From an uncultured Alphaproteobacteria bacterium (GTDB lineage: Bacteria; Pseudomonadota; Alphaproteobacteria; RF32; CAG-239): a stretch of DNA of 64,000 nt. Location of the stretch: assembly GCA_944391725.1 (NCBI GenBank), contig CALXUQ010000001.1, positions 17,345-81,344 on the forward strand, read 5' to 3'. Positions 3,793 through 64,000 of this stretch are shown piece after piece. Both the position numbers and the translations under genes were made by a program. How positions within the stretch are numbered: the first letter of the stretch is position 1; each line of letters begins with the position of its first letter. The notes under the pieces were generated by a model, which was given only the letters and a program-made list of their open reading frames with translations, was not told the DNA's origin and ran no database searches.

Positions 3793-3863
3793 CAAAAATT
3801 TAATTAGTTTTTTGTACCAATAATAGGATATAATAATAATTGACACCGTTAACGGAAGAAAGC

Positions 3864-4967: not shown

Positions 4968-4975
4968 GACAAATA

Positions 4976-47259: not shown

Positions 47260-48030
47260 ATGCTAACAAATGCTGAAAATATCTTAATCACCGGAGCAAG
47301 CAGTGGAATTGGGCGAGCTCTGGCGATATATTATGCTCAAAACGGAGCAAAAAATTTGTTTATCTGTGGCCGCAATTTTGAACGCCTTTCTGCCGTTCAG
47401 AACGAATGTACCACATATGGCGCATCAGTTTATCCGTGCATTTTAGATGTTACCGATAGACAAGCCGTCAAAGAATGGATATTTAACTGTGAGCAGGTTG
47501 CACCACTAAACTTAGTCATTGCCAATGCCGGTGTAGCCACTCTGCAAGAAACCCCGGAGCACATCTACAACACTTTTGAGACCAACATTTTTGGGGTTGT
47601 CAATACGGTATTACCGAGCATTGAAGTATATCGGCAAAGAGATAATAAGGCAGATAAGCGCAAAGCCATTGCCATCATCAGTTCGATAGCGGGTTATCAT
47701 GGTATGCCGAGTTGTCCTTCTTATAGTGCCTCTAAAGCCTGCGTTAAAGCTTGGGGCGAAGGCTTAAGAGGAGATTTGAAAGGAGATAAAATCAAAGTTA
47801 GCGTAGTGTGCCCCGGCTTTGTCCGCTCCGGCATTACGGATAAAAATACTTGCCCCATGCCATTTTTCTTAGAAAGTGATAAGGCCGCCGCAATCATTGC
47901 TCAGCGCATAGATAAGAATGTCGGGTTGATAGCATTCCCCTGGCCTACCCGATTTTTTGCATGGTTTGGTTCCATTTTACCCAACCGAATTAGCCAGTTT
48001 GTATACGACCGCCTTCCACATAAAGTTTAG
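47260..48030 (+). CDS. Short-chain dehydrogenase/reductase (SDR)
   Basis: TGASSGIGRA cofactor motif and YSASK active site. Confidence 0.85.
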   Translation: MLTNAENILITGASSGIGRALAIYYAQNGAKNLFICGRNFERLSAVQNECTTYGASVYPCILDVTDRQAVKEWIFNCEQVAPLNLVIANAGVATLQETPEHIYNTFETNIFGVVNTVLPSIEVYRQRDNKADKRKAIAIISSIAGYHGMPSCPSYSASKACVKAWGEGLRGDLKGDKIKVSVVCPGFVRSGITDKNTCPMPFFLESDKAAAIIAQRIDKNVGLIAFPWPTRFFAWFGSILPNRISQFVYDRLPHKV

Positions 48031-48046
48031 ATAATAAGTCCTTAAT

Positions 48047-48076
48047 TAAAACTCCGCTTGGTGCGGAGTTTTTTTG
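48047..48076 (+). terminator. Rho-independent terminator of the SDR gene
   Basis: AACTCCGC-ttggt-GCGGAGTT followed by TTTTTT. Confidence 0.85.
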
Positions 48077-48092
48077 TACCTCAAAAATCCGC

Positions 48093-48120
48093 TTGCAAAT
48101 TTGATAAGATAGGATAAGCT
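48093..48120 (+). promoter_or_regulatory. Predicted promoter of composite module A
   Basis: TTGCAA, 16-nt spacer, TAAGCT, 6 nt before the start of inter-copy conservation (48127). The same hexamers and spacing occur at 62445-62472. Confidence 0.5.
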
Positions 48121-48126
48121 AAAACT

Positions 48127-48296
48127 GCACTCGGGTGAGCCGGGTGCGGAGTGTCGAAACTCCTTATACAGAAAGAAAGCTCCTTGAATGGGGAGCGACC
48201 GGTATAAGTATGTCTTGCGCATAACGAAGAAGGTCGACTGTTTCTGTATACAGTTTCGAACTCCCCGCCTTAGGAAAGCTAGGGCGGTTTCTTTTT
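48127..48296 (+). ncRNA. Conserved structured leader/ncRNA with intrinsic terminator, copy A (unclassified)
   Basis: About 95 percent identical to 62480-62646 outside one helix, which shows compensatory replacement. Ends in CCGCCTTAG-gaaag-CTAGGGCGG plus TTTCTTTTT. Lies 28 nt upstream of the HTH ORF. Confidence 0.65.
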
Positions 48297-48324
48297 AACT
48301 GGAAACCTAAAGGGAGTTTAGAAC

Positions 48325-48573
48325 ATGGGCCATCATCGCAACCGTATTAAAGCTTGGCAAGCCTGTCAAAAAGAGATTGGCGCACAAATCAAAAATATGC
48401 GCTTAGAGTTAGATTTACCTCCACAAATTGCCGCCGAACTTTTGCATATCGGACTAAACCAGCTTTTGTACCTTGAAAACGGCTATATTGGGAAAATGCA
48501 AATTACAGTTCTCCACGCCTTGGCTTATAAATATCACTATAAGTTAAAAATCAGTTTTGAGAAAAAAACATAA
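48325..48573 (+). CDS. XRE-family helix-turn-helix protein (82 aa), copy A
   Basis: AAGGGAG RBS. IGAQIKNMRLELDLPPQIAAELLHIGLNQLLYLENG fits the HTH_XRE pattern. Paralog at 62676..62924. Confidence 0.75.
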   Translation: MGHHRNRIKAWQACQKEIGAQIKNMRLELDLPPQIAAELLHIGLNQLLYLENGYIGKMQITVLHALAYKYHYKLKISFEKKT

Positions 48574-48724
48574 AGTCATCCCTCGTTTTTCAGAGAAAAA
48601 CGTCCAGGGATCTTCCGATTAAAGCGACTAACTCGAAGACCCCTTGACGACTACTAACGTAGTCGAGGGGTGACATTATTTATGTATTAGTCACCCGCTA
48701 GACGAGCTATAAACTCTGGCACTT
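48574..48724 (+). repeat. Conserved structured tail of module A
   Basis: Nearly identical to 62938-63088. Nested hairpins ATCCCT-CGTTTTTC-aga-GAAAAACG-tcc-AGGGAT, TCTTC/GAAGA, CCCCT..GACTAC-taac-GTAGTC..AGGGG and GGGTGAC/GTCACCC. Confidence 0.8.
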
Positions 48725-49066
48725 CTTAAAGGTCGGAGTTTGAGGTTATTAGAGTTCTTTTCAAGGCGAAGAAAATCCTAGCGTATATAGAAATACGTGG
48801 ATTTTCTGAGACCGCAGAAAAGAGCTCTAATAACCCAAAATACGGGCTTTAAAGTTCGGAGAATGAGTCGTATAGAGTAATTTCTAGGGGAGATGACAAT
48901 CCTAGCGTATAATAAGCTCAATCTTTGGCACAAAAAAGTTCGGAGTTTGAGGTTAGTAGAGTTCTTTTCAAGGCGAAGAAAATCCTAGCGTATATAGAAA
49001 TACGTGGATTTTCTGAGACCGCAGAAAAGAGCTCTAATAACCCAAAATACGGGCTTTAAAGTTCGG
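48725..49066 (+). repeat. Hairpin-unit array A: type-1 unit (48725-48853), truncated type-2 unit (48847-48935), type-1 unit (48935-49066)
   Basis: Units share the 5' end CTTAAAG(G/T)TCGGAG, the apex TAGCGTATATAGAAATACGTGG and the 3' end GCTCTAATAACCCAAAATACGGGCTTTAAAG. The two type-1 units are nearly identical. Confidence 0.85.
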
Positions 49067-50921
49067 GGACAGAAGAATGAGTCCTCCTCTCTTCCGCTAC
49101 CGGAGCATCGTCGTTGCGCTCTAACTTCTCGCCTTTGATAACTTGCTTGATTTCATCACCGGTCAAGGTTTCATATTCAATCAAGGCTTCGGCCAAAAGT
49201 TCCCATTCTTTGCGCTTGTCTTGCAAAATCTGCTTGGCTTCATTATAACCCGACATCACCAAAGACTTGATTTCGGCATCCACCAAACGGGCAGTATCTT
49301 CACTCATATTTTTGTTTTGGGTAACCGACTTGCCTAAAAATACTTCACCCGAATTTTCGGCATACAGCACCGGACCGAGCAAATCGCTCATGCCCCATTC
49401 GGTCACCATAGAGCGCGCCAAGTTGGTTGCCGCCGCAATATCCGAAGAAGCTCCGCTGGTCACATCATCTGCCCCAAACTTGATTTCTTCGGCCACACGT
49501 CCACCCATCATAATTGCCAAGCGCGATTTCATTTTCTGCTTCGAATAAGAATATTGGTCTTTTTCGGGCAGTTGTTGCACCATACCCAAAGCCCGTCCCC
49601 GCGGGATAATCGTTGCTTTGTGAATGGGGTCGGTTTCTTTAACATATAGCGAGCAAATCGCATGTCCGGCCTCATGATAAGCAGTGAGTTGTTTTTCTTT
49701 CTCGTCCATCGCCATTGACTTGCGCTCTGAACCCATCATCACCTTATCTTTGGCTTCATCAAAATCCTTAGAAGTAACTTTGTGCTTGTTTTTGCGCGCC
49801 GCTAATAAGGCGGCCTCGTTCACCAAGTTGGCCAAATCTGCCCCCGAAAACCCCGGAGTACCCCGAGCAATTACCGACAAATTAACATCTTTGGCTAAAG
49901 GAACTTTTTTGACATGAACTTTCAAGATTTCTTCCCGACCTTTTTTATCGGGGTTAGAAACCACCACCTGACGGTCAAAACGCCCCGGACGCAGCAAAGC
50001 CGGATCCAAAACATCGGGACGGTTGGTTGCCGCAATCAAAATCACATTTTCATTGTCTTCAAAACCATCCATCTCCACCAACAATTGGTTTAAGGTCTGT
50101 TCGCGTTCATCATTACCGCCGCCGAGTCCGGCTCCACGGTGACGTCCCACCGCATCAATTTCATCAATAAACAACAGGCAAGGAGCATTTTTTTTGGCTT
50201 GAGCAAACATATCCCGCACTCGCGAGGCACCCACACCCACAAACATCTCCACAAAATCTGAACCCGAAATTGAAAAGAACGGCACATTTGCCTCACCGGC
50301 CACGGCTTTAGCAATTAGGGTTTTACCGGTTCCCGGAGGTCCAACCAGCAACACGCCTTTGGGGATTTTGCCGCCCAAACGCTGGAATTTTGCCGGTTCT
50401 TTCAAAAAGTCGATTACCTCTTCGAGTTCTTGTTTGGCCTCATCGGCACCGGCCACATCGTCAAACGTAACTTTTTTGGTATTTTCAATCAACCGCGCAC
50501 GTGATTTTCCAAAACTCATGGCTTTGTTGTTGCCCGAACTGGCCTGACGCATAAAGAAAATCCACACGCCGATTAGCAAAATCATCGGGAACCAAGAAAT
50601 CAGCACTCCCCAAAACGTATTAGCCGAAGTATCTTCCGGACGCGCCTCCACTTTGGCACCGCTATTTCGCAAGGTTTCAATCATGGTCGGGTCATATGGG
50701 GCATAAGTACTAAACTTGGTACCATCGGTTGCCGTACCCATAATATTTGCCCCCTCAATCATCACCTCGCTGATTTGCTTGTTTTCGGCTTTGGTCATAA
50801 AGTCCGAAAAAGCCATTGTCTGATAACCACGACTTTGCGGATTATTGCTAAACATATTCATAATTGCGGAGAGCAGCACAATTGCCACCAGCCAAATAAT
50901 GATACTTTTTCCTGATTTCAT
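49056..50921 (-). CDS. ftsH: ATP-dependent zinc metalloprotease FtsH
   Basis: 621 aa. GPPGTGKT Walker A. HEAGHA zinc motif. Two N-terminal TM segments. Confidence 0.97.
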
Positions 50922-51007
50922 TACATTTCCTCTAAAGATTTTATTCTTTATATAGATATAAAGTCAAATCCCCCAAAACACAATAGCGATTTTCAACTTA
51001 GGCCACC

Positions 51008-51042
51008 AAAAAACTGCCGTTGATATAAGCGGCAGTTTTTTT
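51008..51042. terminator. Bidirectional terminator between trxA and ftsH
   Basis: AAAAAACTGCCG-ttgatataag-CGGCAGTTTTTTT. Confidence 0.8.
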
Positions 51043-51066
51043 GAGTTAAGTAATTGAGGTTAAAAC

Positions 51067-51381
51067 TTAGCAGTATTGATTAATCCAAGCTTCCAAAGTG
51101 GCCTTAGAGTTCAGACCTACTTTCGTATCCACCTGTTTACCGTCTTTAAATAAGAACATGGTCGGAATACTGCGGATTCCATAACCATTAGCAGTATTTG
51201 GAGCTTCATCGACATTCATTTTGCAGATTTTGACTTTGTCACCCATCGACTTGGAAACTTCTTCCAAAATGGGACCCAACTGGCGGCAAGGTCCGCACCA
51301 TTCTGCCCAAAAGTCGACCAACACCAAACCTTTAGACTTCAAAACCTCGGATTCGAACTGGCTGTCATTGATAGATTGCAT
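51067..51381 (-). CDS. trxA: Thioredoxin
   Basis: 104 aa with the WAEWCGPC active site. Confidence 0.95.
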   Translation of the reverse strand: MQSINDSQFESEVLKSKGLVLVDFWAEWCGPCRQLGPILEEVSKSMGDKVKICKMNVDEAPNTANGYGIRSIPTMFLFKDGKQVDTKVGLNSKATLEAWINQYC

Positions 51382-51473
51382 GATATATTCCTTTCTTGTC
51401 TGAGTAATCGCGTTTCTTCTAATATAGTGTATAATTTTGTGAGATTAAAGAGGAATTGTTATAAAAATGCATT

Positions 51474-54400
51474 TTATTTCACCCGCATCAAATTTGCCGT
51501 ATCGGTCCACAAAATAAAAGTCGAAATTTTCTTGCCCGGATATACCGCCGATAACAAAGATTTATAAGCCTTGAGCTGGCTGATATAAGCTTTTGGCACT
51601 TCGCTAAGCGAGTTTGCGGCCGGACGATTGGTTTTATAATCCACCACCATCACCTCACTTGGCATCACCACCAAACGGTCCACCTGACCGGAAATAATTT
51701 TGCCCTCGGCTAATCCCATAATCGGCACTTCAGCCTGAGATTGCGGTGAAAACAGTGGAGCAAATTCCGGATTTTCAATTAGCTCTGCCACTTCCTCGCA
51801 GATTCGTTCTTGTTCAGACTGAGGCAGCTCTGCCGCATTTTTCTTCACAAACTCACGCATCAGTTCTCGCTTGTTCTCATCTCCGGCCAGTGGCACAAAT
51901 TGCAACAATTTATGGATAATCAAACCGCGCCGATATCGATTCGCTCCTTTTTTGCCGAGTGGCGAAAACAGAGCCGGTTCATCTTCTTCCATTTTGGAAG
52001 GCGCCAACGGCCGCGCTAGAGCCCCTTCTTCGGGCGCCGGCCGGTAAATCCAGTCAAATTCGGGACGGGTTAATTCTTGGACTATCGGAGCTTTTTTACT
52101 TTCGGGTTCAATTTGTTGCTCGGAGCAATAAGTAATTGCACCGCTATCATCACTTTGCCCAATGCTGCTAAGAGATTCTTTACAAATCTCATACCAAGAT
52201 TCCGCACTGGGTTTACTTTTTTGGCTCTTATAATAACCGCAAATACATAACCTATCCTCGGCACGGGTCAAAGCCACATATAACAAGCGCCGATATTCTT
52301 CCAAAGTGGCAACTTTTTCAGCTTGTTTAATTTTCTTGCAGTTGCTTTCATAATCTTTGGAAGATAACGGGTAATAAAATACCTCATCCCACAACATATC
52401 AGATTCGTTTTTAACTTGAGGCACTCTGACCGTATCTGGCAAAATCACCACCGGCGCCTGCAAACCTTTGGAACCATGCACCGTCATTACCCGAACTGCA
52501 TCAGCATCGCTTTGCTCCAGCTCCCGTTTGATTTCCACTTCATCTTTGGACATCCAATCCACAAATCCTTGCAAATCGGGAATATGCTCTTGCTCAAAAT
52601 TAAGTGTAAGGTTCACAAACTCATCCAAACCATCTTCGGCCTCGGGTCCCAAACGCGAGACAAATTTTTTCCGCCCCTCAAGCTTACTCAACACATGGGC
52701 ATATAGCTCAAACGGACGCACTTTTTCAGCTAAAGAACATAAATCTGCCAAACAGCTATATTCTTGAGCGTATTTGAGATTGGAACCCAAACTGCTCCAG
52801 AGCGAAACCACGTTTTCCCGCGGATAGCACAAATCAAACAAATCATCATCATCAAGCCCGAACAATGGCGATTTCAGCACTTCGGCCAAAGAAAGGTCAT
52901 CACTTGGCAGCAACAAAAATTTTCCGAGCGAAACCAAATCTTGCACCGCAATTTGTTCCGAGAGTTTAATTTTATCCACGCCGGCAATCGCCACTCCGGC
53001 ATTTTTACAAGCCCGCACCAGCTCTTCCACAAAACTGTTGCGCCGCTGTACCAAAATCATAAAATCGCGATACCGCAACGGACGATTTTGCGACAGTAAA
53101 ATTTCACCGCCCTCCACCAAATTACGAATTTTTAGTGCAATTTCTTTGGCCAAGCGCGAACTGGTAGATTCGGTCACCACTCTTTCAACCGGAGGCTGCC
53201 ACACATCGGGGTTTTCGCCTTCTTGCGGCTCGGTTAGAGGCCAAAATTCAATTTTTCCGGCATCACCGATTCGAAACGGGATATGCGTAATATCTTCACT
53301 TTCTTCCGCCACTCCGGGCTTATATTGCGGATTCGAAAACACCACATTAACTGCATCTAAGACCGCCGAGGTGGAGCGGAAAGAAACTTCCAAATTCACC
53401 TCATCAAAAGTATCGCTTTCCGCTAAGATTTCGGCAAAATACTTTCGCATCCGCTCAAATTCTTTGGGCTCTGCACCTTGGAAACTATAGATAGATTGCT
53501 TTTTATCACCCACCGCAAAAACCGTGCGTCGTTTTTCTCCGGCTCCGATATCATCAAAGAACCCCGCACTCAAAGCCTTGACAATTGCCCACTGATCCGG
53601 AGAGGTATCCTGTGCCTCATCAATTAAGATATTATCAATACCGCCATCAAGCTTAAACATCACCCACTGCGGCACTTGCGGACTATCCAAAAGTTTGCGG
53701 GTCAGCACAATCAAATCCTCATAATCGAGCTTTGAATGCTGGGCCTTAAATTGGTTATAGCCGCCAATTAAATCTTCTGCCAAATACAACACTGCTTTGG
53801 TCGATTCGAGCAAATGAACCGCGGTGAGTTTATCATAAAGCTGTTGCAAACGAACTGCCTCCGCTAGCGCCACCACAGGCAATTCGGGATAAAAAGCCAC
53901 CGCATCTTTAGTTCCGAAGCGTGCCGGAAGTTCGTTTCCTTTGTTCAAAAAACACTGCCGATATGCCTCCAAATTATCCGCCACATCTCTGTTTTCAAGC
54001 AACTTAAATATGGTTTCGGCTTTCGCATTATCGGTCTTTGCCCCATGTTGCCAAGCTTCCGCCAAATTGCGCAAAATGTTCCAATCAATATGGTCGGCAA
54101 ATTCACCAATCAACGCTTCTTCCGTGCTGGTTGGTGAGATTCCCATACGGCGGGCCAACTCATTTATGACGGCATCAGGAGTTTTATATTTAGCAAACAT
54201 CCGCGAAATTTTGTTACGCGAGTTAGCAATCGCACTCATAATTTTCGGAAAAGAAAATTCACTCACCTTTCCGGTTAAAAACGACATTGCCTGCGCCGCC
54301 CGACTTTGCGGATTGTTCTCAATTTCAGCCAGCAACTTGCGGCGCACCTCATCTAATGCCTCTGCGGCCAAACGATCATCCATCACCTCAAAATAAGGCG

Positions 54401-54866
54401 AGATATGAGCTTCAATCGGAAATCGTTTCAAAATTTCCTGGCAAAAACTATGAATGGTCTGAATTTTCATTCCGCCCGGAGTGTCTAACAAAACTGCAAA
54501 CAAACGTCTGGCCTTGTCTTCCAACTGGGCTAAATCTTGCGGATTGTCGGGTAAATCCCCCAGCAGCTTTTTCAGTTCCTTATCAAGCTTTTCGGTTGGC
54601 ATCACCGCCCAAGCGCTTAAACGAGCCGAAATACGTTGACTCATTTCCACCGCCGCCGCTTTCGTATAAGTCAAACACAAAATCCGCCCCGGCAAACAAC
54701 CACTAAGCAAAATCCGCAAAACCCTATCAGAAAGCACTTTGGTTTTTCCGGTTCCGGCCGATGCCTGCACCCATACCGATTTTTGCGGATTTGAGGCTTT
54801 GCGCTGTTGTGCGGTCGCCAGTTCTCCACGTTTTTCTCGGCTTTGTTTAATTGTTGCTTGCTCCAT
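51474..54866 (-). CDS. addA: Double-strand break repair helicase AddA (UvrD-type helicase plus C-terminal nuclease)
   Basis: 1130 aa. ASAGTGKT Walker A. C-terminal GQVDRLVV...VVDYKTNR PD-(D/E)XK motif. Confidence 0.9.
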   Translation of the reverse strand: MEQATIKQSREKRGELATAQQRKASNPQKSVWVQASAGTGKTKVLSDRVLRILLSGCLPGRILCLTYTKAAAVEMSQRISARLSAWAVMPTEKLDKELKKLLGDLPDNPQDLAQLEDKARRLFAVLLDTPGGMKIQTIHSFCQEILKRFPIEAHISPYFEVMDDRLAAEALDEVRRKLLAEIENNPQSRAAQAMSFLTGKVSEFSFPKIMSAIANSRNKISRMFAKYKTPDAVINELARRMGISPTSTEEALIGEFADHIDWNILRNLAEAWQHGAKTDNAKAETIFKLLENRDVADNLEAYRQCFLNKGNELPARFGTKDAVAFYPELPVVALAEAVRLQQLYDKLTAVHLLESTKAVLYLAEDLIGGYNQFKAQHSKLDYEDLIVLTRKLLDSPQVPQWVMFKLDGGIDNILIDEAQDTSPDQWAIVKALSAGFFDDIGAGEKRRTVFAVGDKKQSIYSFQGAEPKEFERMRKYFAEILAESDTFDEVNLEVSFRSTSAVLDAVNVVFSNPQYKPGVAEESEDITHIPFRIGDAGKIEFWPLTEPQEGENPDVWQPPVERVVTESTSSRLAKEIALKIRNLVEGGEILLSQNRPLRYRDFMILVQRRNSFVEELVRACKNAGVAIAGVDKIKLSEQIAVQDLVSLGKFLLLPSDDLSLAEVLKSPLFGLDDDDLFDLCYPRENVVSLWSSLGSNLKYAQEYSCLADLCSLAEKVRPFELYAHVLSKLEGRKKFVSRLGPEAEDGLDEFVNLTLNFEQEHIPDLQGFVDWMSKDEVEIKRELEQSDADAVRVMTVHGSKGLQAPVVILPDTVRVPQVKNESDMLWDEVFYYPLSSKDYESNCKKIKQAEKVATLEEYRRLLYVALTRAEDRLCICGYYKSQKSKPSAESWYEICKESLSSIGQSDDSGAITYCSEQQIEPESKKAPIVQELTRPEFDWIYRPAPEEGALARPLAPSKMEEDEPALFSPLGKKGANRYRRGLIIHKLLQFVPLAGDENKRELMREFVKKNAAELPQSEQERICEEVAELIENPEFAPLFSPQSQAEVPIMGLAEGKIISGQVDRLVVMPSEVMVVDYKTNRPAANSLSEVPKAYISQLKAYKSLLSAVYPGKKISTFILWTDTANLMRVK

Positions 54867-54871
54867 TAGTA

Positions 54872-57754
54872 CTAACTCTCACTCTCATCAGCCACAACCG
54901 ACCATTCTCTCACCCGCGCCAAATGCTCATAATCCGAATATTCCGGCAACCGCTTTGGATTCGGCTGACAAACATAAGGCGTAGTTTCAAATTCAAATAA
55001 ATTAACCAGCTTTTGCAACCGCTCATAGGTGTTATCAAGTAGTTGGTTCATGTCTTTATCAATAATGGTTTCTTGCTTGGCTAACTGCCAGTAAATCAGT
55101 TTATCCACTTCTCGGGCATTAAGCTTGCCAAATCCACCGCTCCGCGCAATCAAGCCCTCAATCGGCAATTGGGGCGCATATCCGGCTCTAACCTCGGTTT
55201 CTTTGCGGGCTTTTCCGGTTTTATAATCAATAATGTTATATTTTCCATCTATGGTTTCATCAACCCGATCGGCAATTGCCGTAACCTTAAAACCGCGCGG
55301 CGTCACGATTTCTACTTCCCCGCGCACTTCATTATGCACTTGTGCCACATTCGGACGATAAGTTTTTTCTTGTTCCAAAATCCAGTCAATGCTTTTTATA
55401 AAATTCGGCCACCAAAAAGCTTTGGTTTCTGAGGCAATCTGATTTTGTTTGAAATAAACCTCACCAAGTTTAATCAGCTCCTCGCGAGCATTATCCGGCA
55501 GTTGTTTTGGATATTTGTTGTTAAACTGCTGTAAAATAGCATGAATGATTGTTCCGTAATCAGCCGGTGTCAATTCACGGTCCAGCTCATCTAGAGGTTT
55601 GAGTTTGAGGATATATTTTGCAAAAATCGCATAAGGATCACGCATCCACATCTCAATTGCACTGGCCGAAAGTTCTCGCGGACGAGCTTCAAGCGGCGGC
55701 ATCGGCTGAGGCGGATTAATCGGCACAACCCTTTGCGGCCGATCCAAATGCTTGGCCCACAAACGATACACCGCATTTTCCAAACTTTGCGGCTCAATGT
55801 TAAGTGCTTTTAAGACTGTTTCCAAACGCAACCACCAGCGCGATTTTACCATCGGCGTCCCTTGCACTCTCTCGGCTCTGGTCAAATAGACTTCCTCTCC
55901 GGCCAAGAGCTGACTAAAATCAAAAGCATTAACCCCAATCTCTCGCTCCGGTAACGGAAAGCCGAAATCTTTCTTCATCGGGCGCGACATCCACGGGTCA
56001 GAACCGGCCGCTTTCGGCCAAATTCCTTCATTGACTTCGCCAATAATCGTCACATCAAAATGGTTTAAGCGCGCCTCAATCGGCCCCAAAATTTTTAACC
56101 GCGGATGCATACCGAATTTCGGCCGCACATTTATCGAAATCATCAAAGTTTCGAGCAAACCGGCATATTCTTGCGGGTTAATCTCGCCCAAGACCTCCGC
56201 TTGCTCGTCTAAATCTGCCACCAAACGGGCTGCTGCTTCTCCGTCATCTCCGCCCCACAAAATTTGCGCTCCGTCTTTTCCCGGACGCGAGGCCAGTTTT
56301 TCAGCTGTTTTAATATGGCAGGTCAGTAGTTCCTTGAAATCCACTTTGCTTTGCGATAACAACAAAGCCAAATCGGCCAAAATAGCTTGTGCAGATACTT
56401 CAAATTGGGATAACTGCTCATCTTCTTGCCCTCGCCGCCACACTTTTTTCTCCAAACGGCGGATAAGCTGACGCAATTCGCCATATTCTTGCCCCATACA
56501 ACAAAGCGGATTTTTCCAAAGCTCGGCTAAATATAATTTTTTATCTGCTGTCGCCGCTTGCACAATCTGCCGCAAAAAGATACCCACTTCCGAAAGCGCC
56601 AAAGGCTTTCCGGCCGAATCATCAACTTGGACATTCCAGCGCTCCAGCTCATTTGCCACCCGTCGGGCCAAATTTCTGTCTTGGGTCACCAAAGCCGCCG
56701 TCTTGCCTTCTTCTTCCAAAGTTTCGCGCATAATGAGGGCAATTGCCAAAGCTTCTTCTCTAATGTCGGCACAGTTAATCAGATTGATTCCGCCCCAAGC
56801 CTGCGGCGAAAAACTCTGGCTTGGAAGTTCGCGCCATTTTTCGCTTGAGAGAGCCGGACGCATCACCTCGGCAATAAACCTTTCCGCTTCCAGATTCGCC
56901 GCCGGACGTAAATCTTGAACTTCATGGCGATTAACCTCAAGATAATCCAACAGTTCTTTAAGCTCAAATTGAGGATGAGTTTCATCAACCATCTGCCAAT
57001 CCTCATCACTCAAAAACTTGTCTAAGCCTGCCAAATAAAGTTCGCCGTTTTCAAGACCCAACACGGTCGCCACCAATTTTTTCATCGCCGGAAAGGCGGC
57101 CGTTGTTCCCGCAATCACGATCCGCCCTTGGGGTCGGTTTTGTTGCCAAATCTCGCTTTGTGCCTCAAGTAGACGGTTGCGGCGCAAACTGGCATCAATC
57201 AGTTGGCGCTCTTCTAAAATCTGCGGCCAAAAGTGAGTAATGATTTTGAGAAATTTCAGAGTATCTTGCCAGTGAGCGGCATAATCTTCAGGTACCAAAT
57301 TTTCTAAGTTATCAAAACTGAGCTGTTTGTTATTGACCATATCAATCAAACCGCCCAGCTCTTGAGCCAAAGCGCAAGCCTGCGCCAAAGACATTTTCTC
57401 CACCCCAAACTCTGCGGGCTTAGCCATAATAATCCGCACAAACAACAACAAGCGCTCGGTTGTCCCGATAGCCGGACACATACCGCTCAGCAATTCGCGT
57501 GCATTTCCGCCGGTTAGGAATAGTTCTTCGTCTTCCACCTCGCCGATTGGCATCATCTTAGGCAAGAGCATTGGGGTCAAACCCCGCAAACGCACAAAAG
57601 CTTCTTTCATGCTTCGCACCGCCCGACGATTCGGCAGCAGCAACAATACCTTAGAAAGCTCCGGCAAATCGGACTGATATTCTTCCAACAAATGCTCGGC
57701 TAAAGTTTCGGAAAACCCCAAAGAAGAAGGTATATTATAAATTTTTTTGTTCAT
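54872..57754 (-). CDS. addB: Double-strand break repair protein AddB (alphaproteobacterial type)
   Basis: ATG at 57754 (MNKKIYNIPSS). C-terminal ADRVDE...IIDYKTGK nuclease motif. Directly upstream of addA. Confidence 0.85.
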   Translation of the reverse strand: MNKKIYNIPSSLGFSETLAEHLLEEYQSDLPELSKVLLLLPNRRAVRSMKEAFVRLRGLTPMLLPKMMPIGEVEDEELFLTGGNARELLSGMCPAIGTTERLLLFVRIIMAKPAEFGVEKMSLAQACALAQELGGLIDMVNNKQLSFDNLENLVPEDYAAHWQDTLKFLKIITHFWPQILEERQLIDASLRRNRLLEAQSEIWQQNRPQGRIVIAGTTAAFPAMKKLVATVLGLENGELYLAGLDKFLSDEDWQMVDETHPQFELKELLDYLEVNRHEVQDLRPAANLEAERFIAEVMRPALSSEKWRELPSQSFSPQAWGGINLINCADIREEALAIALIMRETLEEEGKTAALVTQDRNLARRVANELERWNVQVDDSAGKPLALSEVGIFLRQIVQAATADKKLYLAELWKNPLCCMGQEYGELRQLIRRLEKKVWRRGQEDEQLSQFEVSAQAILADLALLLSQSKVDFKELLTCHIKTAEKLASRPGKDGAQILWGGDDGEAAARLVADLDEQAEVLGEINPQEYAGLLETLMISINVRPKFGMHPRLKILGPIEARLNHFDVTIIGEVNEGIWPKAAGSDPWMSRPMKKDFGFPLPEREIGVNAFDFSQLLAGEEVYLTRAERVQGTPMVKSRWWLRLETVLKALNIEPQSLENAVYRLWAKHLDRPQRVVPINPPQPMPPLEARPRELSASAIEMWMRDPYAIFAKYILKLKPLDELDRELTPADYGTIIHAILQQFNNKYPKQLPDNAREELIKLGEVYFKQNQIASETKAFWWPNFIKSIDWILEQEKTYRPNVAQVHNEVRGEVEIVTPRGFKVTAIADRVDETIDGKYNIIDYKTGKARKETEVRAGYAPQLPIEGLIARSGGFGKLNAREVDKLIYWQLAKQETIIDKDMNQLLDNTYERLQKLVNLFEFETTPYVCQPNPKRLPEYSDYEHLARVREWSVVADESES

Positions 57755-57827
57755 AACGCGAGTGTAAAACAATCTGATGATTAGTCAACAAAAAAGGTCT
57801 TCCGCACTAGCGGAAAACCTTATTTTA

Positions 57828-58172
57828 CTACAAAGGCAAAATTGCCCAAATGAACTTAAACGGCAAGACCATAAATTTCTTACCATGAATCGTTTCAACA
57901 ACCACATATTCGGTCAAACCCAAATTGCAGTTAGCCACCACAATTTCTTTTTTGCGCACCGACCTTGATGCCACCCGACAACCATAACGTAATTTTTTAG
58001 CCACATTTTCGACTGAAAAATTTTCATCTTCACCATTATCTGTTTGTGGTTTTAAACAGCCCCATAATCGTACGCTTATATGATTAGACCAAGGATAACT
58101 ACACAAAGAGACATTATCCATCAAATCATTTGGGTGTGGCGGACGAAATCCATCTAAACATTTCTGCTCCAT
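57828..58172 (-). CDS. Hypothetical protein (114 aa), weakly supported
   Basis: The only sizeable ORF in the 466-nt addB-rdgB spacer. ATG start but poor RBS. No motif recognised. Confidence 0.3.
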   Translation of the reverse strand: MEQKCLDGFRPPHPNDLMDNVSLCSYPWSNHISVRLWGCLKPQTDNGEDENFSVENVAKKLRYGCRVASRSVRKKEIVVANCNLGLTEYVVVETIHGKKFMVLPFKFIWAILPL

Positions 58173-58219
58173 ACCTAATAATTTTAAAATAGTTACTATA
58201 ATCAGTTATAAAAAAACTC

Positions 58220-58813
58220 TTACTTCTGACGCAAATAAGCTACAAATTTTTCCAGAGCTCGACCCCGATGCGAGATACTCGCTTTTTCGTCAGCTTCAAA
58301 ATGTCCAAATGTCTTGTTAAAACCTTCCGGAATAAAAATCGGATCATAACCAAAACCTTTGTTACCGCTTTTTTCTAAAGCAATTTTCCCATCAACCCGA
58401 CCTTCAAAAACTTTAGTTTCCTCACCGGGAATGGCTAAAGCTAAGACACAAGAAAAGTGAGCACTTCGGTCATTCGAGCCGCTTTGCTTCAGCTCAGCTA
58501 ATAACATATCCATACCTTTGTCAAAATCGCGGTTTGGTGCATAGCGAGCCGAATATACCCCCGGTCGTCCCTCAAGCGCATCCACACACAAGCCGGAATC
58601 ATCGGCCAGACAAGGCAAACCCGAAACTTTGGCCAAAGTTTCAGCCTTAAGGCGCGAATTTTCCTCAAAAGTTGTTCCGGTTTCTTCCACATCGGGAAGA
58701 CTTAAATCTTGAGCCGAACAGACTTCAATCTCAAGCGGCGCCAACATTTTTCTAAATTCGGCAATCTTGCCTTGGTTGTGCGAGGCAATCACGATTTTTT
58801 TGATAGTTTGCAT
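58220..58813 (-). CDS. rdgB: dITP/XTP pyrophosphatase RdgB (Ham1 family)
   Basis: ATG at 58813 (MQTIKKIVIASHNQGKIAEF). GFGYDPIF motif. Confidence 0.9.
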   Translation of the reverse strand: MQTIKKIVIASHNQGKIAEFRKMLAPLEIEVCSAQDLSLPDVEETGTTFEENSRLKAETLAKVSGLPCLADDSGLCVDALEGRPGVYSARYAPNRDFDKGMDMLLAELKQSGSNDRSAHFSCVLALAIPGEETKVFEGRVDGKIALEKSGNKGFGYDPIFIPEGFNKTFGHFEADEKASISHRGRALEKFVAYLRQK

Positions 58814-58814
58814 T

Positions 58815-59528
58815 TTAGTTTTTCCCCAAAGCTTGTTTTTGCGCTTCAATCAGTTCGGCAATACCTTTTTTAGCCAACGCATATAGCGCCTTAAATTGAT
58901 CATCGTCAAAAGGCATACCTTCGGCTGTTCCTTGAATTTCTACAATCTTACCACTTTCTGTCAGCACAAAATTCATATCTGCCTGCGCGTTAGAATCTTC
59001 CACATAGTCGACATCTAAAATCGGCTCTCCGTGATAGAGCGCACAAGAAACCGCGGCCACAGCTTCTTTGAGTGGATTAACCAAAAGCTTGCCTTCCTTA
59101 TGGAGTTTGGCTAAAGCCATTGCTAAGGCCACATAACCACCAGTAATTGAGGCAGTACGAGTTCCGCCGTCAGCCTGAATAACATCGCAATCAATACAAA
59201 TTGAAATATCTTTCATGGCATTAAGATCGACCACAGCCCGCAAAGCCCGTCCGACCAAACGCTGAATCTCCTGAGTACGCCCCGAAGGTTTGGTAGTTTC
59301 GCGCGGAACTCTGACCTGAGTTGAACGCGGCAGCATACCATATTCGGCCGTAATCCAACCTTTGTTTTGACCTTTGAGCCAAGCCGGCACCTTGTCTTGC
59401 ACACTTGCCGTACAAACCACATGCGTATTGCCGCATTTAATTAAGCACGAACCTTCGGCATAAGGATTATAATTGGGTATAATTTCAACTTTGCGGAGTT
59501 CATCTGCTTTTCGATTAGAATTTCTCAT
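58815..59528 (-). CDS. rph: Ribonuclease PH
   Basis: 237 aa. GSCLIKCGNTHVVCTAS and DCDVIQADGGTRTASITG motifs. Confidence 0.95.
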   Translation of the reverse strand: MRNSNRKADELRKVEIIPNYNPYAEGSCLIKCGNTHVVCTASVQDKVPAWLKGQNKGWITAEYGMLPRSTQVRVPRETTKPSGRTQEIQRLVGRALRAVVDLNAMKDISICIDCDVIQADGGTRTASITGGYVALAMALAKLHKEGKLLVNPLKEAVAAVSCALYHGEPILDVDYVEDSNAQADMNFVLTESGKIVEIQGTAEGMPFDDDQFKALYALAKKGIAELIEAQKQALGKN

Positions 59529-59575
59529 GATATGTCTTCTATAAAATTAAGTTAGTCACTTAAGAGATATAATGC

Positions 59576-61699
59576 TCATAAATGACCGCTTGTCAACAGC
59601 TTATAATACTGATAGACGCTACCGTCTTTCACATCCCAGCTAAAATCTTTGCGCATGGCCGCCACTTCCATTTCGGTCAGTTTTTGGGGATGATTGGCAA
59701 ACACGTCTAAAGCCTTGAGCAAAACATCGGCATAAGCATTAACATTATTTTTGAAACGCTTGCCGTCTTTTTCACTGCCATACACCTGACGAGTATTACC
59801 AAAAAAGACCAAAGTCCGAAAACCGTCCGTTCCGTCTTCAATCGTATCCACCAACCCTCCGGTTGACATTGCCACCGGCAGACTTCCTTTGGCCATGGCC
59901 TCCATCTGGGTCAGTCCGCAGGGCTCAAAGCGACACGGCATCATATAAAAATCACTCGCCAGCTGAATAGCATAAGCAAACTCATCTTTATAGCCGCGGA
60001 AGACAAAGATTCGTTTTGCCGCTTCCGGGTTTAGGTCTGCCACGGTATCTTTGAGTTTCATCAAATGCTCGAAACATTTCATATCTCCGGCACCACCCAA
60101 AATAAATATCGGCGCGACCTTAATTTTTTTGGCCTTATACAGCTCAATAATGGCACTGGCCGCAATGTCATAACCTTTTTGTTCCACCAAACGACTGGTC
60201 GCACAAAACATCGGAATTTCATCACTGATATTTTCCAAATCCGAAATATCTTCAAACTTATAGAAATTAATCAGCGGCAAAGTCTTGCGTCGATAATCGG
60301 CATCAACCGCCAATTTTGAGATAAGGCGAATAAATTCGCGTTTGTTTTGCTTTTTGATTTCTAAAGAATTTTCTTCATAACAACCAAAATTAAAGCCGAC
60401 AAAATGGTTATTTATACAATTGATTTTTTTAGGATTAGGGGTAATCAGTTTCTTGTCATAACCATTAACAATCCCGACAAAAGTACCGTTTTCTTTGCGC
60501 AGATTTAAGAGTTTGCAAAAATCATAACCAAAATCGGGCTCTTTGGAAACTTCCTCACAATAGTTGCGCGACACCGTCACCACCCGATCGGCCAAATGGA
60601 AATTGCAACAAGCCTGATTATAAACCCCGTCCACCACTAATGAGTTGTGAATACGGGGATTATCTTTACGACAAGCCTTAGCATTTTTGAGCACCGGCTT
60701 AATAGAATTTTCATACAAAGAATTAAGAATGCGCACGGTGTTTTGATTATCCCAGCCCTGATAACCCAAATGGTGAGCCAAATGGATAACCGGAATATTA
60801 CGGATTCTTTCTGCGGTTTCAGCATCCAAACGACCTTGTTTTTGGAGCATCACGGTCAGATACTTGGTCAAACCGGCAATTGCACCGCTGTGCCAGTCAT
60901 TGGCAATCAAAACATTCGGACAAGAAATTTCGGCCAAATCGGCATTGCCTGCGCACAAACTTTTTAGCAATACAAAAACTGCCTTGGAGAAAAATGCAAA
61001 CCGCTCCACCTCGTTGATACCAAGCTTGTTAAGAACATAGCAGCCATCTTGGCAATCCGGATTGCGATAATCGGTCGTAATGGTAAAGAAGCGATGATTT
61101 TTCAAGAAAATATAATTGACCATTCCTTTTTTAGCGGTATAAACACCCACTTCAAAGGACTGCAAAACATTATTTTTTCCGACAAATGGAACATAGATAT
61201 TAGTGATTTTTTTGATTTCGATAGAACGGTTTTCGGCACCGGTATAGATATTTTTTCGAAGGAAAGCTTTTTTGTGTTTGGTATCACCGAGATAAAGCGG
61301 AGTAACGACCGTGATTTTATCACCTTGGTTTTGGAAAGTAGTGTTAAATGCCTCAGGCAATTCGGTTGCCACCACTCCCAGTCCGCCAACTTTCATAAAA
61401 GTTGCTGTTTCCGAAGAAATCATCCAAGCATTAATTTTGTGGATATCGGGCCATTTTCCGGCTGCGGCACACTGTTGCTTTGCCACTTCATAAATTTCGG
61501 AAACCTGCTCGCCCGGCTCTGCCTCCCCATGCATTGCAGAAAATTTCCCAAATTCGCTTTTTGATAACAACCCCCGTTGATTAACTGTACTTGACGTAGG
61601 TTTATTAGCCCTCATTTTTACTCTCTCGCAACCACAAAACACACCCCTCATCATCGCACAACTTCCTTTTTTTTCACAAAAGGGAGTATGCACCAACAT
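59576..61699 (-). CDS. Glycogen/starch synthase-like GT5 glycosyltransferase, unusually long; start codon uncertain
   Basis: KVGGLGVVATELPEAF (KxGGL motif) and STGGLVDTIEDGTDGF. About 90-aa N-terminal extension and internal insertions. Alternative ATG starts downstream of 61699. Confidence 0.7.
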   Translation of the reverse strand: MLVHTPFCEKKGSCAMMRGVFCGCERVKMRANKPTSSTVNQRGLLSKSEFGKFSAMHGEAEPGEQVSEIYEVAKQQCAAAGKWPDIHKINAWMISSETATFMKVGGLGVVATELPEAFNTTFQNQGDKITVVTPLYLGDTKHKKAFLRKNIYTGAENRSIEIKKITNIYVPFVGKNNVLQSFEVGVYTAKKGMVNYIFLKNHRFFTITTDYRNPDCQDGCYVLNKLGINEVERFAFFSKAVFVLLKSLCAGNADLAEISCPNVLIANDWHSGAIAGLTKYLTVMLQKQGRLDAETAERIRNIPVIHLAHHLGYQGWDNQNTVRILNSLYENSIKPVLKNAKACRKDNPRIHNSLVVDGVYNQACCNFHLADRVVTVSRNYCEEVSKEPDFGYDFCKLLNLRKENGTFVGIVNGYDKKLITPNPKKINCINNHFVGFNFGCYEENSLEIKKQNKREFIRLISKLAVDADYRRKTLPLINFYKFEDISDLENISDEIPMFCATSRLVEQKGYDIAASAIIELYKAKKIKVAPIFILGGAGDMKCFEHLMKLKDTVADLNPEAAKRIFVFRGYKDEFAYAIQLASDFYMMPCRFEPCGLTQMEAMAKGSLPVAMSTGGLVDTIEDGTDGFRTLVFFGNTRQVYGSEKDGKRFKNNVNAYADVLLKALDVFANHPQKLTEMEVAAMRKDFSWDVKDGSVYQYYKLLTSGHL

Positions 61700-61783
61700 A
61701 ACTTCCGCTATTGACTTGTTGTGTAATAATCACTAAATATCATAATATATACAGGCATAATCCAAAAGTTTAAAGAGGAAAAA

Positions 61784-62386
61784 ATGAAAAAAGAAAAAAT
61801 AGTTGATAAACCCGAATGTGAAGAAGACGAAGCCGCGGAAACTGAGCTTGAGCAAGAGCTTGCGGCCGAGGACGCCGCTGAGGGCGAAGCCGAAAACGAT
61901 GCGGAAGATTTAGAGTTTTTGAAAGCGGAAAATCAACGCCTAAAAGAAGACTTTTTAAGAGCTTATGCTGATGCCGAAAACATCAAAAAACGTTGTGCTC
62001 AAGAAATTGAGAAAAACAACAAATATGCCATTTCCTCTTTTGCCAAAAGTCTGTTAAGCGTTGCCGATAATCTGCACCGTGCGATTGATGCCCTCCCCGA
62101 GGACAAGAAACAAAACTGCCCCGAGGCCATGAGCTTGCTTAAAGGAGTTGAGCTCACCGAAGCAGAGTTGATGAAAGTGTTTGATAAATTCGGCATCAAA
62201 AAAATGGAAAGCCTCGGCACGGTTTTCAACCCCAACTACCATCAGGTCATTCAAGAGGTTGAGGACAAAGAAAAGCCGAACGGTACCATTATTTCTGAGC
62301 TCCAAACCGGTTATATGCTCAACGACCGCATTTTGCGTGAGGCCATGGTTGTGGTCACCAAAGGCGGACCGAGCGAACAGCATTAA
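61784..62386 (+). CDS. grpE: Nucleotide exchange factor GrpE
   Basis: Acidic N-terminus, coiled coil, and FNPNYHQVI / ELQTGYMLNDRILREAMV motifs. Confidence 0.95.
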   Translation: MKKEKIVDKPECEEDEAAETELEQELAAEDAAEGEAENDAEDLEFLKAENQRLKEDFLRAYADAENIKKRCAQEIEKNNKYAISSFAKSLLSVADNLHRAIDALPEDKKQNCPEAMSLLKGVELTEAELMKVFDKFGIKKMESLGTVFNPNYHQVIQEVEDKEKPNGTIISELQTGYMLNDRILREAMVVVTKGGPSEQH

Positions 62387-62409
62387 GCAATAAAAAGAAT
62401 TAATTTTTG

Positions 62410-62443
62410 CACTACTTACCGGAAAGGGTAAGTAGTGTTTTTT
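62410..62443 (+). terminator. Rho-independent terminator of grpE
   Basis: CACTACTTACC-ggaaag-GGTAAGTAGTG followed by TTTTTT. Confidence 0.85.
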
Positions 62444-62444
62444 G

Positions 62445-62472
62445 TTGCAATTTTTCAAAAATACTTTAAGTT
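62445..62472 (+). promoter_or_regulatory. Predicted promoter of composite module B
   Basis: TTGCAA, 16-nt spacer, TAAGTT, 7 nt before the conserved RNA start (62480). Positionally equivalent to 48093-48120. Confidence 0.5.
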
Positions 62473-62479
62473 AGGAGAT

Positions 62480-62646
62480 GCACTCGGGAGAGCCTGGTGC
62501 GGAGTATCGAAACTCCTCGTATGAAAGAATAGCTCCTTGAATGGGGAGCGACCGGAATAAGTGTGCCTTGCGCATAACGAAGAAGGTCGACTGACATACG
62601 CAGTTTCGAACTCCCCGCCTTAGGAAAGCTAGGGCGGTTTCTTTTT
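62480..62646 (+). ncRNA. Conserved structured leader/ncRNA with intrinsic terminator, copy B (unclassified)
   Basis: Same architecture as 48127-48296. The helix CGTATG (62518-62523) / CATACG (62595-62600) replaces TATACAGAAA/TTTCTGTATA of copy A. Identical terminator at 62615-62646. Confidence 0.65.
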
Positions 62647-62675
62647 AACTAGAAACCTAAAGGGAGTTTAGAGCT

Positions 62676-62924
62676 ATGGGACGTTATAGTAAACGAATTA
62701 AATCTTGGCAGGAATGCCGCAAAGAAATTGGCGAAAAGATTAAGGACATGCGATTAGAGTTGGATTTATCGCCCGAAACCGCCGCCGAAATTTTGCATAT
62801 TGGCACCAAACATTTATGTTGCTTAGAAAATGGCGACATCCGTAAAATGGAAATCTCTTATCTCCATTCTATAGCTTATAAATATAGCTATAAGTTAAAG
62901 ATAAGCTTTGAGAAAAAGAATTAG
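62676..62924 (+). CDS. XRE-family helix-turn-helix protein (82 aa), copy B
   Basis: AAGGGAG RBS. IGEKIKDMRLELDLSPETAAEILHIGTKHLCCLENG. 54 of 82 residues identical to copy A by hand count. Confidence 0.75.
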   Translation: MGRYSKRIKSWQECRKEIGEKIKDMRLELDLSPETAAEILHIGTKHLCCLENGDIRKMEISYLHSIAYKYSYKLKISFEKKN

Positions 62925-62937
62925 AAAAAACAAAAAA

Positions 62938-63088
62938 AGTCATCCCTCGTTTTTCAGAGAAAAACGTCCAGGGATCTTCCGATTAAAGCGACTAACTCGA
63001 AGACCCCTTGACGACTACTAATGTAGTCGAGGGGTGACATTATTTATATATTAGTCACCCGCTAGACGAGTTTTAAACTCTGGCACGG
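62938..63088 (+). repeat. Conserved structured tail of module B
   Basis: Differs from 48574-48724 at only a handful of positions. Confidence 0.8.
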
Positions 63089-63543
63089 CTTAAAGTTCGG
63101 AGAATGAGTCGTATAGAGTGATTTCTTTGGCGATGACAATCCTAGCGTATAAAGAAATACGTGGATTGGCATCTACCCCGTAAAATTGCTCTAATAAACC
63201 AAAATAAACTTTAACCTCAGGCACAGCTTAAAGTTCGGATAGTGGATTTAGTAGAGTAGTTTTTAGGGCGAGAAAAATTTTAGTGTAGATAAACCTACAT
63301 GCAGTCGATAGTTGGCGATTGGCAAGCACCTCGTGCGCAGACAGAGCCTTACGTGACGAGCGAGCTTGCGAGATCAACTTTTCGAGACCCGCTAAAACTG
63401 CTCTAATAAACCGCTAGACGAACTTTAAGGTAAATTGTGATATGTGAGTCGAATAGTAAGAAATTAGGAATTTTGCGACTGAGTGTATAAAGAAATACAC
63501 GATTGGAGCAAAATATCCGACATTTCTGTACTAGTCGACCACA
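63089..63543 (+). repeat. Hairpin-unit array B: type-2 unit (63089-63213), type-3 unit (63227-63429), degenerate type-2-like unit (about 63424-63543)
   Basis: Same conserved termini and apex as arrays A and C. The type-3 unit has 11-nt terminal inverted repeats, CTTAAAGTTCG ... CGAACTTTAAG. Confidence 0.85.
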
Positions 63544-63553
63544 GAGCACAATT

Positions 63554-64000
63554 TTATATCATGGCCATACCACCATTAATATTAATAGTCTGTCCGGTGA
63601 TATATTGAGCTTCATCAGATGCTAAGAAAGCAACCACATTGGCAATGTCTTGAGCTTCACCAAGTTTGCCTTCCGGAATTTTAGCCAACAAAGCAGCTTT
63701 CACATCTTCTGGCAAAACATCGGTCATCGGAGTACGAATGAAACCCGGAGCAATCGAGTTAACCGTAATTCCGCGAGAACCAACTTCTTGAGCCAAACAT
63801 TTGTTCATGGCAATCATACCGGCTTTTGAAGCAGAATAGTTAGCTTGTCCGGCATTTCCGGTAACACCAACCACCGAAGCAATACCGATAATACGACCAT
63901 AGCGGCGTTTCATCATACCGCGAACGGCAGCTTTAGCCAATTTGAAACCAGCCGAAAGGTTAACATCGAGCACCAACTGCCAGTCTTCATCACTCATCCG
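63554..64000 (-). CDS. fabG: 3-oxoacyl-[acyl-carrier-protein] reductase FabG, N-terminal part beyond window edge
   Basis: YSASKAG active site. C-terminal TGQTININGGMAMI. The ORF stays open to the window end. Confidence 0.85.
   Translation of the reverse strand, partial: RMSDEDWQLVLDVNLSAGFKLAKAAVRGMMKRRYGRIIGIASVVGVTGNAGQANYSASKAGMIAMNKCLAQEVGSRGITVNSIAPGFIRTPMTDVLPEDVKAALLAKIPEGKLGEAQDIANVVAFLASDEAQYITGQTININGGMAMI

Follow-up and report, generated by a model that had tools for sequence, protein, structure and literature searches.

A structured RNA and a small XRE-type regulator gene form a multicopy cassette in uncultured gut Alphaproteobacteria

The stretch of DNA analyzed here, called the window, comprises 64,000 nucleotides (nt) of contig CALXUQ010000001.1 from an uncultured alphaproteobacterium. 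Between grpE and fabG it carries locus B (62445-63543), which belongs to a multicopy family of regulatory cassettes in uncultured gut Alphaproteobacteria; another block of the window, locus A, lies at 48084-49075. The constant core of the cassette consists of a promoter, an RNA of about 167 nt with an intrinsic terminator, a Shine-Dalgarno sequence and an open reading frame (ORF) for an 82-amino-acid XRE-type helix-turn-helix (HTH) protein. The RNA is a family new to Rfam, in an already known kind of arrangement. We hold with moderate confidence that the cassette yields mostly a short RNA and that conditional read-through of the terminator into the XRE gene would produce the regulator. The parts of locus B are listed below. 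The positions that a sequence-only reading had assigned to promoter, RNA, ORF, tail and hairpins all agree with the sequence.

62409-62444, + strand: intrinsic terminator of grpE, the left boundary, outside the cassette (12-bp stem at 62409-62438 and T-run; terminator scan)
62445-62472, + strand: putative promoter, TTGCAA (62445-62450) and TAAGTT (62467-62472) separated by 16 nt, read from the sequence
62480-62646, + strand: structured RNA of about 167 nt (fold, covariation, covariance model score of 177.8 bits, terminator scan)
62660-62666, + strand: Shine-Dalgarno sequence AAGGGAG, 9 nt upstream of the ATG (GGAGTT is invariant in 52 of 52 copies)
62676-62924, + strand: ORF of the 82-amino-acid XRE-type HTH protein (ORF list; span includes the stop codon)
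62937-63088, + strand: the tail, an optional branched structured 3' element
63089-63225, + strand: hairpin unit u1, a long imperfect palindrome with the conserved apex TAGCGTATAAAGAAATACGTG
63226-63430, + strand: hairpin unit u2, which is larger and contains a G+C-rich insert
63431-63543, + strand: hairpin unit u3, a long hairpin

The RNA is a real structured RNA. In locus B its minimum free energy is -71.1 kcal/mol, with z=-5.4 against shuffles, and the locus A RNA reaches z=-6.4. An alignment of 52 distinct copies was built from hits to a degenerate pattern and from other loci. RNAalifold predicted 42 pairs on this alignment, with compensatory changes in 22 of them. On the predicted structure 98.8% of the cells pair, compared with 37-50% when the partners were slid. 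Covariation was 0.463 against at most 0.082 in the controls, a value reached by none of 500 shuffles. The G-U pairs fall on the + strand, so that RNA and ORF are transcribed in the same direction. The following helices were found.

62480-62500, + strand: P1, a 5' hairpin that differs between genomes and is uniform within one genome
62502-62515 with 62602-62614, + strand: P2, a long-range helix
62518-62523 with 62595-62600, + strand: P3, as variable and as compensated as the inner part of P2
62532-62549, + strand: P4, the invariant hairpin CUCCUU-NNAU-GGGGAG
62550-62591, + strand: P5, with two interchangeable types
62615-62637, + strand: stem of P6, a canonical intrinsic terminator (scan), then TTTCTTTTT; the U-tract is at 62638-62646
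62636-62657, + strand: P7, in which GGTTTCT of the terminator U-tract pairs with a downstream AGAAACC, just 5' of the Shine-Dalgarno sequence

The base of P2 is constant (GGAGU with ACUCC), and its inner part varies among the copies of one genome as matched pairs, such as CGA/UCG, AGU/ACU and CAC/GUG. P2 and P3 close a three-way junction with invariant nucleotides, which contains P4 and P5. The P6 stem is preserved by compensatory changes in three or more alleles. P7 covaries across genomes, where UUUCUUUU is found with AAGAAA and UUUUGUUUU with AAAACAAA. At gathering scores the only match of Rfam 15 in the window was a tRNA, and none fell on the RNA. At E<=10 the region 62380-63560 gave nothing credible, only noise such as an L10 leader, IS102 and snoRNAs; the L10 leader match is really the grpE terminator and was rejected. 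A tmRNA-like 3' end (TTCGAACTCCCCGCC) was considered, and ARAGORN found neither a tRNA nor a tmRNA in the block. A peptide encoded within the RNA (ATG in the P4 loop; 17 or 11 amino acids in two variants) and an antisense ORF (62466-62597) were also rejected, since they lack a Shine-Dalgarno sequence and a conserved length, and since the substitutions preserve RNA pairing by compensation.

The ORF is a genuine coding sequence under purifying selection, and the ratio of nonsynonymous to synonymous substitution rates (dN/dS) is 0.07-0.25 across six copies. The window proteins alone are below the Pfam cut-offs (HTH_25, 21.2 bits against the 24.6 needed). An XRE/Cro-C1 HTH domain (HTH_3-like) is detectable by profile. 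When searched against 1.8 billion representatives, the family profile reached P0069, a distant member of 85 amino acids that is itself above the Pfam cut-offs for HTH_19 and HTH_25, and XRE/Cro-C1 HTH proteins, with matches to multi-HTH XRE proteins down to E=8e-18. The close protein family is narrow, with 62 clusters that are all >=62% identical and none of which is named. It is also a mosaic, in which three N-terminal types and three recognition-helix types occur in differing combinations. The nearest PDB entry is the transcriptional regulator 4ghj, with a weaker match to HigA2, and the AlphaFold model of the XRE protein is poor (predicted local distance difference test, pLDDT, of 60). The small XRE proteins (72-118 amino acids) encoded behind the same RNA in other genomes are very different; they have in common a C-terminal motif resembling YYGKKIxIxLVD. 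Type-specific autoregulation of the XRE protein at its own promoter is disfavoured, because within one genome an identical promoter precedes very different proteins.

Locus B had been described as a second full copy of the module with its parts in the same order as in locus A, and both BLAST and the covariance model bear this out. The parts of locus A are:

48091-48573, + strand: core of locus A, with the putative promoter TTGCAA at 48094-48099, the RNA at 48127-48296 and the ORF at 48325-48573 (covariance model, 178.7 bits)
48574-49062, + strand: tail and three hairpin units of locus A, with the ftsH stop codon (49056-49058) falling within the terminal motif

When the block was compared with the window by BLAST, 62479-63206 aligned to 48126-48842 with 81.6% identity over 734 nt (E=0), and additional unit matches were found at 48849-49049. 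A 21-nt core of the RNA occurs exactly 2 times in the window, where 0 occurrences are expected from shuffles, and the covariance model detects exactly two RNA copies of 178 bits each. Between A and B the tail is 98.5% identical (locus B tail against 48573-48702), the RNA 88.6%, the ORF DNA 73.5% and the ORF protein 66% without gaps. Synonymous sites of the two ORFs are saturated (proportion of synonymous differences, pS, of 0.73) and dN/dS is low (0.08); therefore the ORFs are real, old paralogues. The non-coding flanks of A and B are held alike by constraint, gene conversion or both.

The two loci of the window belong to a larger family, and thus the view that there are just two did not hold. 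A first search with the exact RNA core found four copies in one metagenome-assembled genome (MAG). A degenerate core pattern, run over species-representative MAGs, then found 67 copies in 13 of them, all from uncultured gut (Alpha)proteobacteria, with copies per genome reaching 10, 9, 9, 8, 7 and 7. Among the gut sources are human samples (UMGS241 and one from an infant included) and the rectum of roe deer; metagenome matches came from human gut. No copy was found in the phage, plasmid and viral-contig collections searched. The cassettes are located between housekeeping genes, at grpE-fabG, SDR-ftsH, priA-atpH, topA-macB, glmM-tolB, proS, pheT, accD and gyrB. In UMGS241 the grpE and SDR sites are also filled by cassettes. 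At the grpE site, UMGS241 and the window are 79% identical in the RNA, 32% in the XRE protein and 79.5% in GrpE, and occupation of both sites at this GrpE identity shows that they are old. Two RNA-only copies, with an intact terminator and no XRE ORF, are present in L027 (about 4930-5120, - strand) and L054 (about 1850-2020, - strand), the latter being the only pattern match in its genome (BRZ_PK bin103). Of 37 genes 3' of a cassette, 31 are convergent with it, and of 45 genes on the 5' side, 33 are co-directional. Given this strong orientation bias, read-through transcripts would cover the 3' end of a housekeeping gene in antisense.

Downstream of the core, palindromic DNA of about 620 nt extends from the end of the ORF to near the fabG stop codon (63554-63556). 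The tail and the hairpin units are optional palindromic repeats that are gained and lost by recombination, and they are probably co-transcribed with the cassette. In the tail, an outer stem (GTCATCCCTC with GAGGGGTGAC) encloses three hairpins and is followed by the hairpin GGGTGAC..GTCACCC, which gives a multi-branch fold. Four compensatory pairs were seen across 9 copies, and the first tail hairpin shows compensatory changes. The tail and hairpin DNA folds strongly on both strands (z=-9.2 and -12.1). The description of the whole block as a single module stood for the RNA and the ORF, whose association is constant. It did not stand for the tail and hairpin units, which are missing from many copies (L001 and L005-L012), nor for the units by themselves, which also occur alone, as at one site of the window:

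41651-41900, + strand: stand-alone u2-type hairpin unit, flanked by a TPR ORF and the convergent lptF/G gene; neither the RNA nor an XRE ORF is in the vicinity

The hairpin units thus form a repeat family of their own. Further units away from cassettes were found in L033, L039 and L052, and units next to a cassette are always in the cassette orientation. Unit u2 is 92.5% identical to the stand-alone copy (41701-41900) and 93.6% to L004 780-982, and is missing from the grpE-fabG site in L062, L002 and L019. Relatives of u3 are present in L004, L013 and L025, and u3 is missing from the other grpE-fabG loci. The arrays of loci A and B differ as had been noted, with uA1, a truncated copy of u1 and uA1 in locus A, and u1, u2 and u3 in locus B; the middle unit of locus A is 92% identical to u1 of locus B. 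At the grpE-fabG site the 3' arrays are:

Window: tail, u1, u2 and u3
L002 (MAG bin121): tail, truncated u1 and a u1-like unit
L019/L020: shortened tail and u1
L062: a different 75-nt element and u1

This comparison of related genomes supports the proposal that the distal array is modular and that its units are gained and lost. The most informative contig is L062, from the same species, in which grpE is 100% identical to that of the window. Identity to the window also extends to the promoter, P1, the terminator, codons 26-82 of the ORF and u1. A different allele occupies the interval that begins at P2 and ends at codon 25, and the array lacks u2 and u3. An allele swap amid identical flanks shows that the proximal part is a mosaic produced by patchwise gene conversion. 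The proximal part had been described as fixed, and both this swap and the divergence of the A and B proteins contradict that claim.

No function had been assigned in the sequence-only reading, and the arrangement of the core suggests a mechanism. A sigma-70-type promoter right after the grpE terminator would drive the RNA of about 167 nt, and most transcripts would end at P6, giving an abundant short RNA. Some signal, which may be a ligand, a protein or an RNA, would be sensed by the conserved junction and cause read-through by the polymerase, so that the regulator is made. The leader would then be a transcription attenuator or riboswitch-like. The short RNA may also act in trans, and gene conversion among copies may keep the non-coding parts alike while shuffling alleles. 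The ORF starts about 30 nt after the U-tract, and since this leaves no room for a promoter of its own and a canonical terminator lies ahead, it would be transcribed only by read-through of P6. The promoter had been described as abutting the grpE terminator, and the terminator stem and T-run do lie just ahead of it; the similarity between cassette copies sets in right after this terminator, at the -35 box. The TTGCAA of the -35 box and the position of the -10 box are kept in all copies. From this arrangement we infer promoter activity, attenuation as the control step and the existence of a signal.

The only described parallel is the Brt/Trp system of Bartonella. There, nine structured RNAs of about 194-203 nt each lie 10-18 nt 5' of a promoter-less XRE gene (Tu et al. 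2016, PMC5387305). The Brt RNAs are highly expressed and the trp genes silent; the system was reported to be unique to Bartonella, and Brt1 was proposed to act in trans too (PMC5387305). In B. henselae the 3' stem-loop of Brt1 attenuates transcription into trp1, as shown experimentally: removing it de-represses the gene, and a reporter was found to respond to heme (review, PMC8070961). By analogy, the architecture of the gut cassette closely matches that of Brt/Trp, although membership of one family is unsupported by RNA or protein homology. Both systems are alphaproteobacterial, host-associated and multicopy (nine in B. henselae, up to 10 per MAG). Both have a highly structured RNA of about 170-200 nt with its own promoter and a G+C-rich 3' stem-loop, followed about 10-30 nt downstream by a small XRE HTH ORF without its own promoter. 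In both the RNA paralogues resemble each other more than the proteins do. The layout of promoter, 167-nt RNA, 30-nt gap and ORF was found in both window copies and in about 50 others. The RNAs also share a 5' hairpin and a long-range helix with the closing sequence GGAG/GGG...ACUCC(C); the inner 6-8 bp of this helix are hypervariable between paralogues and still complementary. Among 32 Brt copies this helix (GGG[var]CCC...[var']ACUCCC) occurs in 19 alleles; it is 6.44 bp long on average, compared with 4.93 bp when the partners are shuffled.

The Brt loci used here were retrieved with a primer-derived 19-mer, which also matched a few unrelated G+C-rich genomes. With default filters, covariance model R1 found nothing below E=1 in 35 Brt loci, and with filters off the best match overlapping a Brt had about 10 bits (E~1). 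Searches with nhmmer between the gut RNA and Brt were non-significant in both directions. One nhmmer match in Bartonella massiliensis (L109 6161-6231, E=0.022) lacks P1, P2 and the terminator and was judged to be due to chance. The protein profile gave about 23 bits against 111 Trp-like ORFs, in the HTH region only, and orthology is not supported. The best BLASTP match between gut XRE and Trp proteins has 29-36% identity over 44-73 amino acids. Trp proteins have 108-152 amino acids, whereas the gut proteins have 72-118, and the likeness is limited to the generic HTH. The Brt 3' hairpin has no U-tract, unlike the gut RNA. Brt loci are concentrated in about 15% of the genome, whereas the gut copies sit between housekeeping genes, and the tail and hairpin arrays of the gut cassette have no described counterpart in Brt. 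The Brt 3'-hairpin 19-mer occurs >168 times in Bartonella loci (L086-L205), often in tandem with a spacing of about 320-870 nt, and is also present on plasmid pVbh_WD121. At least 99 distinct pairs of Brt and XRE gene were found across Bartonella species, far above the nine described for B. henselae.

The RNA also resembles transcriptional riboswitches and attenuators. It has a multi-helix junction with invariant unpaired nucleotides, an aptamer-like fold conserved with covariation support in the 52 copies, and an intrinsic terminator directly 5' of the ORF. Cyclic di-GMP riboswitches have several copies per genome, as does this RNA. It differs from riboswitches in that the genes regulated would all be small XRE regulators, and in that no conserved terminator/antiterminator alternative was found. 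This last result weighs against conditional read-through, as do several other observations. In the alignment of 52 sequences no conserved covarying alternative pairing competes with P6, and a covarying pairing between the G-rich P4/P5 strand and CUCCCCGCC was sought and none found. P2 adjoins the terminator without overlapping P6, and inspection of the alignment gave as the only possible competitors of P2 and P3 the invariant local hairpins GGAG..CUCC and ACUG..CAGU. Judged by the E. coli consensus, the window copies have a weak -10 box, and the promoter of locus B (TAAGTT) did not pass a strict E. coli-type promoter scan; at the same position, copies in other genomes have TATCAT or TATACT, both near consensus, or TAATAT. 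Transcript ends and read-through are predictions from sequence, and the experimental support from Brt1 is an analogy, as homology to Brt was undetected. Finally, the RNA-only copies L027 and L054 and the far better conservation of the RNA than of the protein fit an RNA with a main job other than control of the ORF.

Such a job could be that of a stand-alone, trans-acting small RNA, with the XRE ORF as a passenger expressed by leakage or as a regulator of the RNA promoter. This is possible, and we give it an appreciable but minor share of probability. The RNA-only copies and the canonical terminator would suit it, as would an RNA that is 79% conserved where the XRE protein is at 32%, and there is the precedent of the trans action proposed for Brt1. 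The alignment also contains C-rich CUCC motifs complementary to Shine-Dalgarno sequences; these motifs are located in stems, however, and no targets were identified. A passenger ORF is difficult to reconcile with purifying selection, and with an ORF placed at a fixed short distance behind an invariant Shine-Dalgarno sequence in about 50 of 54 complete copies. The two explanations partly overlap, because a dual-function RNA is possible. An additional proposal joins attenuation with copy-specific feedback. One riboswitch-like attenuator class might put about ten paralogous XRE regulators under one signal, with the hypervariable but self-complementary inner P2 and P3 as address codes by which the abundant terminated RNA of a copy invades only nascent leaders of the same allele, like plasmid incompatibility RNAs, and Brt might be a distant relative of one ancient alphaproteobacterial design and not an invention of a single genus. 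We consider this proposal doubtful.

Copies are numerous and dispersed over different sites, two loci encode one identical protein (P0056), and palindromic repeats lie alongside, with a miniature inverted-repeat transposable element (MITE) inserted in some copies. These observations could also suggest that the block is a mobile or selfish composite which carries the RNA, the ORF and the hairpin arrays to new intergenic sites by transposition. This is unlikely. No transposase or integrase was found in or near any copy, and there are no terminal inverted repeats or target duplications, the similarity beginning at the -35 box. The block has no further ORF, and no inverted repeat of the kind expected for a transposon or MITE marks the start of the similarity between copies. 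Occupation of the grpE and SDR sites at 79.5% GrpE identity indicates long vertical residence, the patchy allele replacement in L062 resembles gene conversion, and the plasmid, phage and viral collections contain no copy. A toxin-antitoxin or defence-type pair, in which the XRE protein would be an antitoxin-like repressor and the RNA its partner, is the least probable of these explanations and very improbable in itself. The protein has weak similarity to the HTH domains of HigA2 and MqsA-type antitoxins, but these matches are generic and far under the family cut-offs. No toxin ORF is present, a second conserved ORF is lacking in every copy, and the RNA does not contain repeats of the type III antitoxin kind; up to ten copies lie beside housekeeping genes and not in defence islands.

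The cassette has implications beyond the window. In common but uncultured human-gut bacteria, a structured RNA family that Rfam lacks is now strongly supported. Brt/Trp was thought to be unique to Bartonella, where it controls adhesion and biofilm formation, and a second, independent or very distant instance suggests that gating of small XRE regulator families by RNA attenuators may be general in Alphaproteobacteria. With up to ten copies in a small genome, the cassettes could be a major regulatory layer, in which the candidate for the sensor is the invariant three-way junction. Nested compensatory swaps of alleles, together with the turnover of units within one species, provide a clear natural example of gene conversion under RNA-structure constraint. 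The weight of these findings would rise if the junction binds a ligand, or if the hypervariable helices give copy-specific feedback.

The tail and units resemble the repetitive extragenic palindromic (REP) sequences and bacterial interspersed mosaic elements (BIME). They are dispersed, intergenic imperfect palindromes, the units having 110-200 nt and lying at gene 3' ends in mosaic tandem arrays that vary between strains. However, the units are longer than classical REPs, and nearly all those found here are just 3' of a cassette, in its orientation. Unusually for REP-like repeats, it is their apex TAGCGTATATAGAAATACGTG (window 63143-63163, 48779-48799, 48986-49006 and 41755-41775) that is conserved, and the stems are variable. 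Within the apex lies the inverted repeat CGTAT-N6-ATACG, spaced as in a typical operator for an HTH dimer. The repeats abut or supply the ends of convergent genes. The ftsH stop codon lies inside the terminal CTTTAAAGTTCGG motif of the last unit of locus A (window 49050-49062), and in L062 the end of u1 overlaps the fabG stop codon (about 305-315).

The gene order around the cassettes differs between genomes. UMGS241 has the orders SDR-cassette-fabG and grpE-cassette (L022 1919-4146 and L021 2067-3446), and the window (47260-64000) has SDR-A-ftsH ... grpE-B-fabG, so that the flanks are exchanged. This exchange fits a chromosome rearrangement through recombination between directly repeated cassettes. 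Three cassette loci carry a MITE-like insertion of about 270 nt with terminal inverted repeats of about 20 bp (GCCCCTAAATCYCCCTTAAA), at the same point in the 3' strand of P2:

L015 3650-3940 (also L017): MITE-like insertion
L026, about 520-800: MITE-like insertion
L077, about 3800-4080: MITE-like insertion

One of the interrupted loci is the bin121 ortholog of locus A of the window (SDR-ftsH), and L036 and L065 have a different insertion at the same RNA position. The shared insertion point is either a hot spot or the result of an interrupted allele spread by gene conversion.

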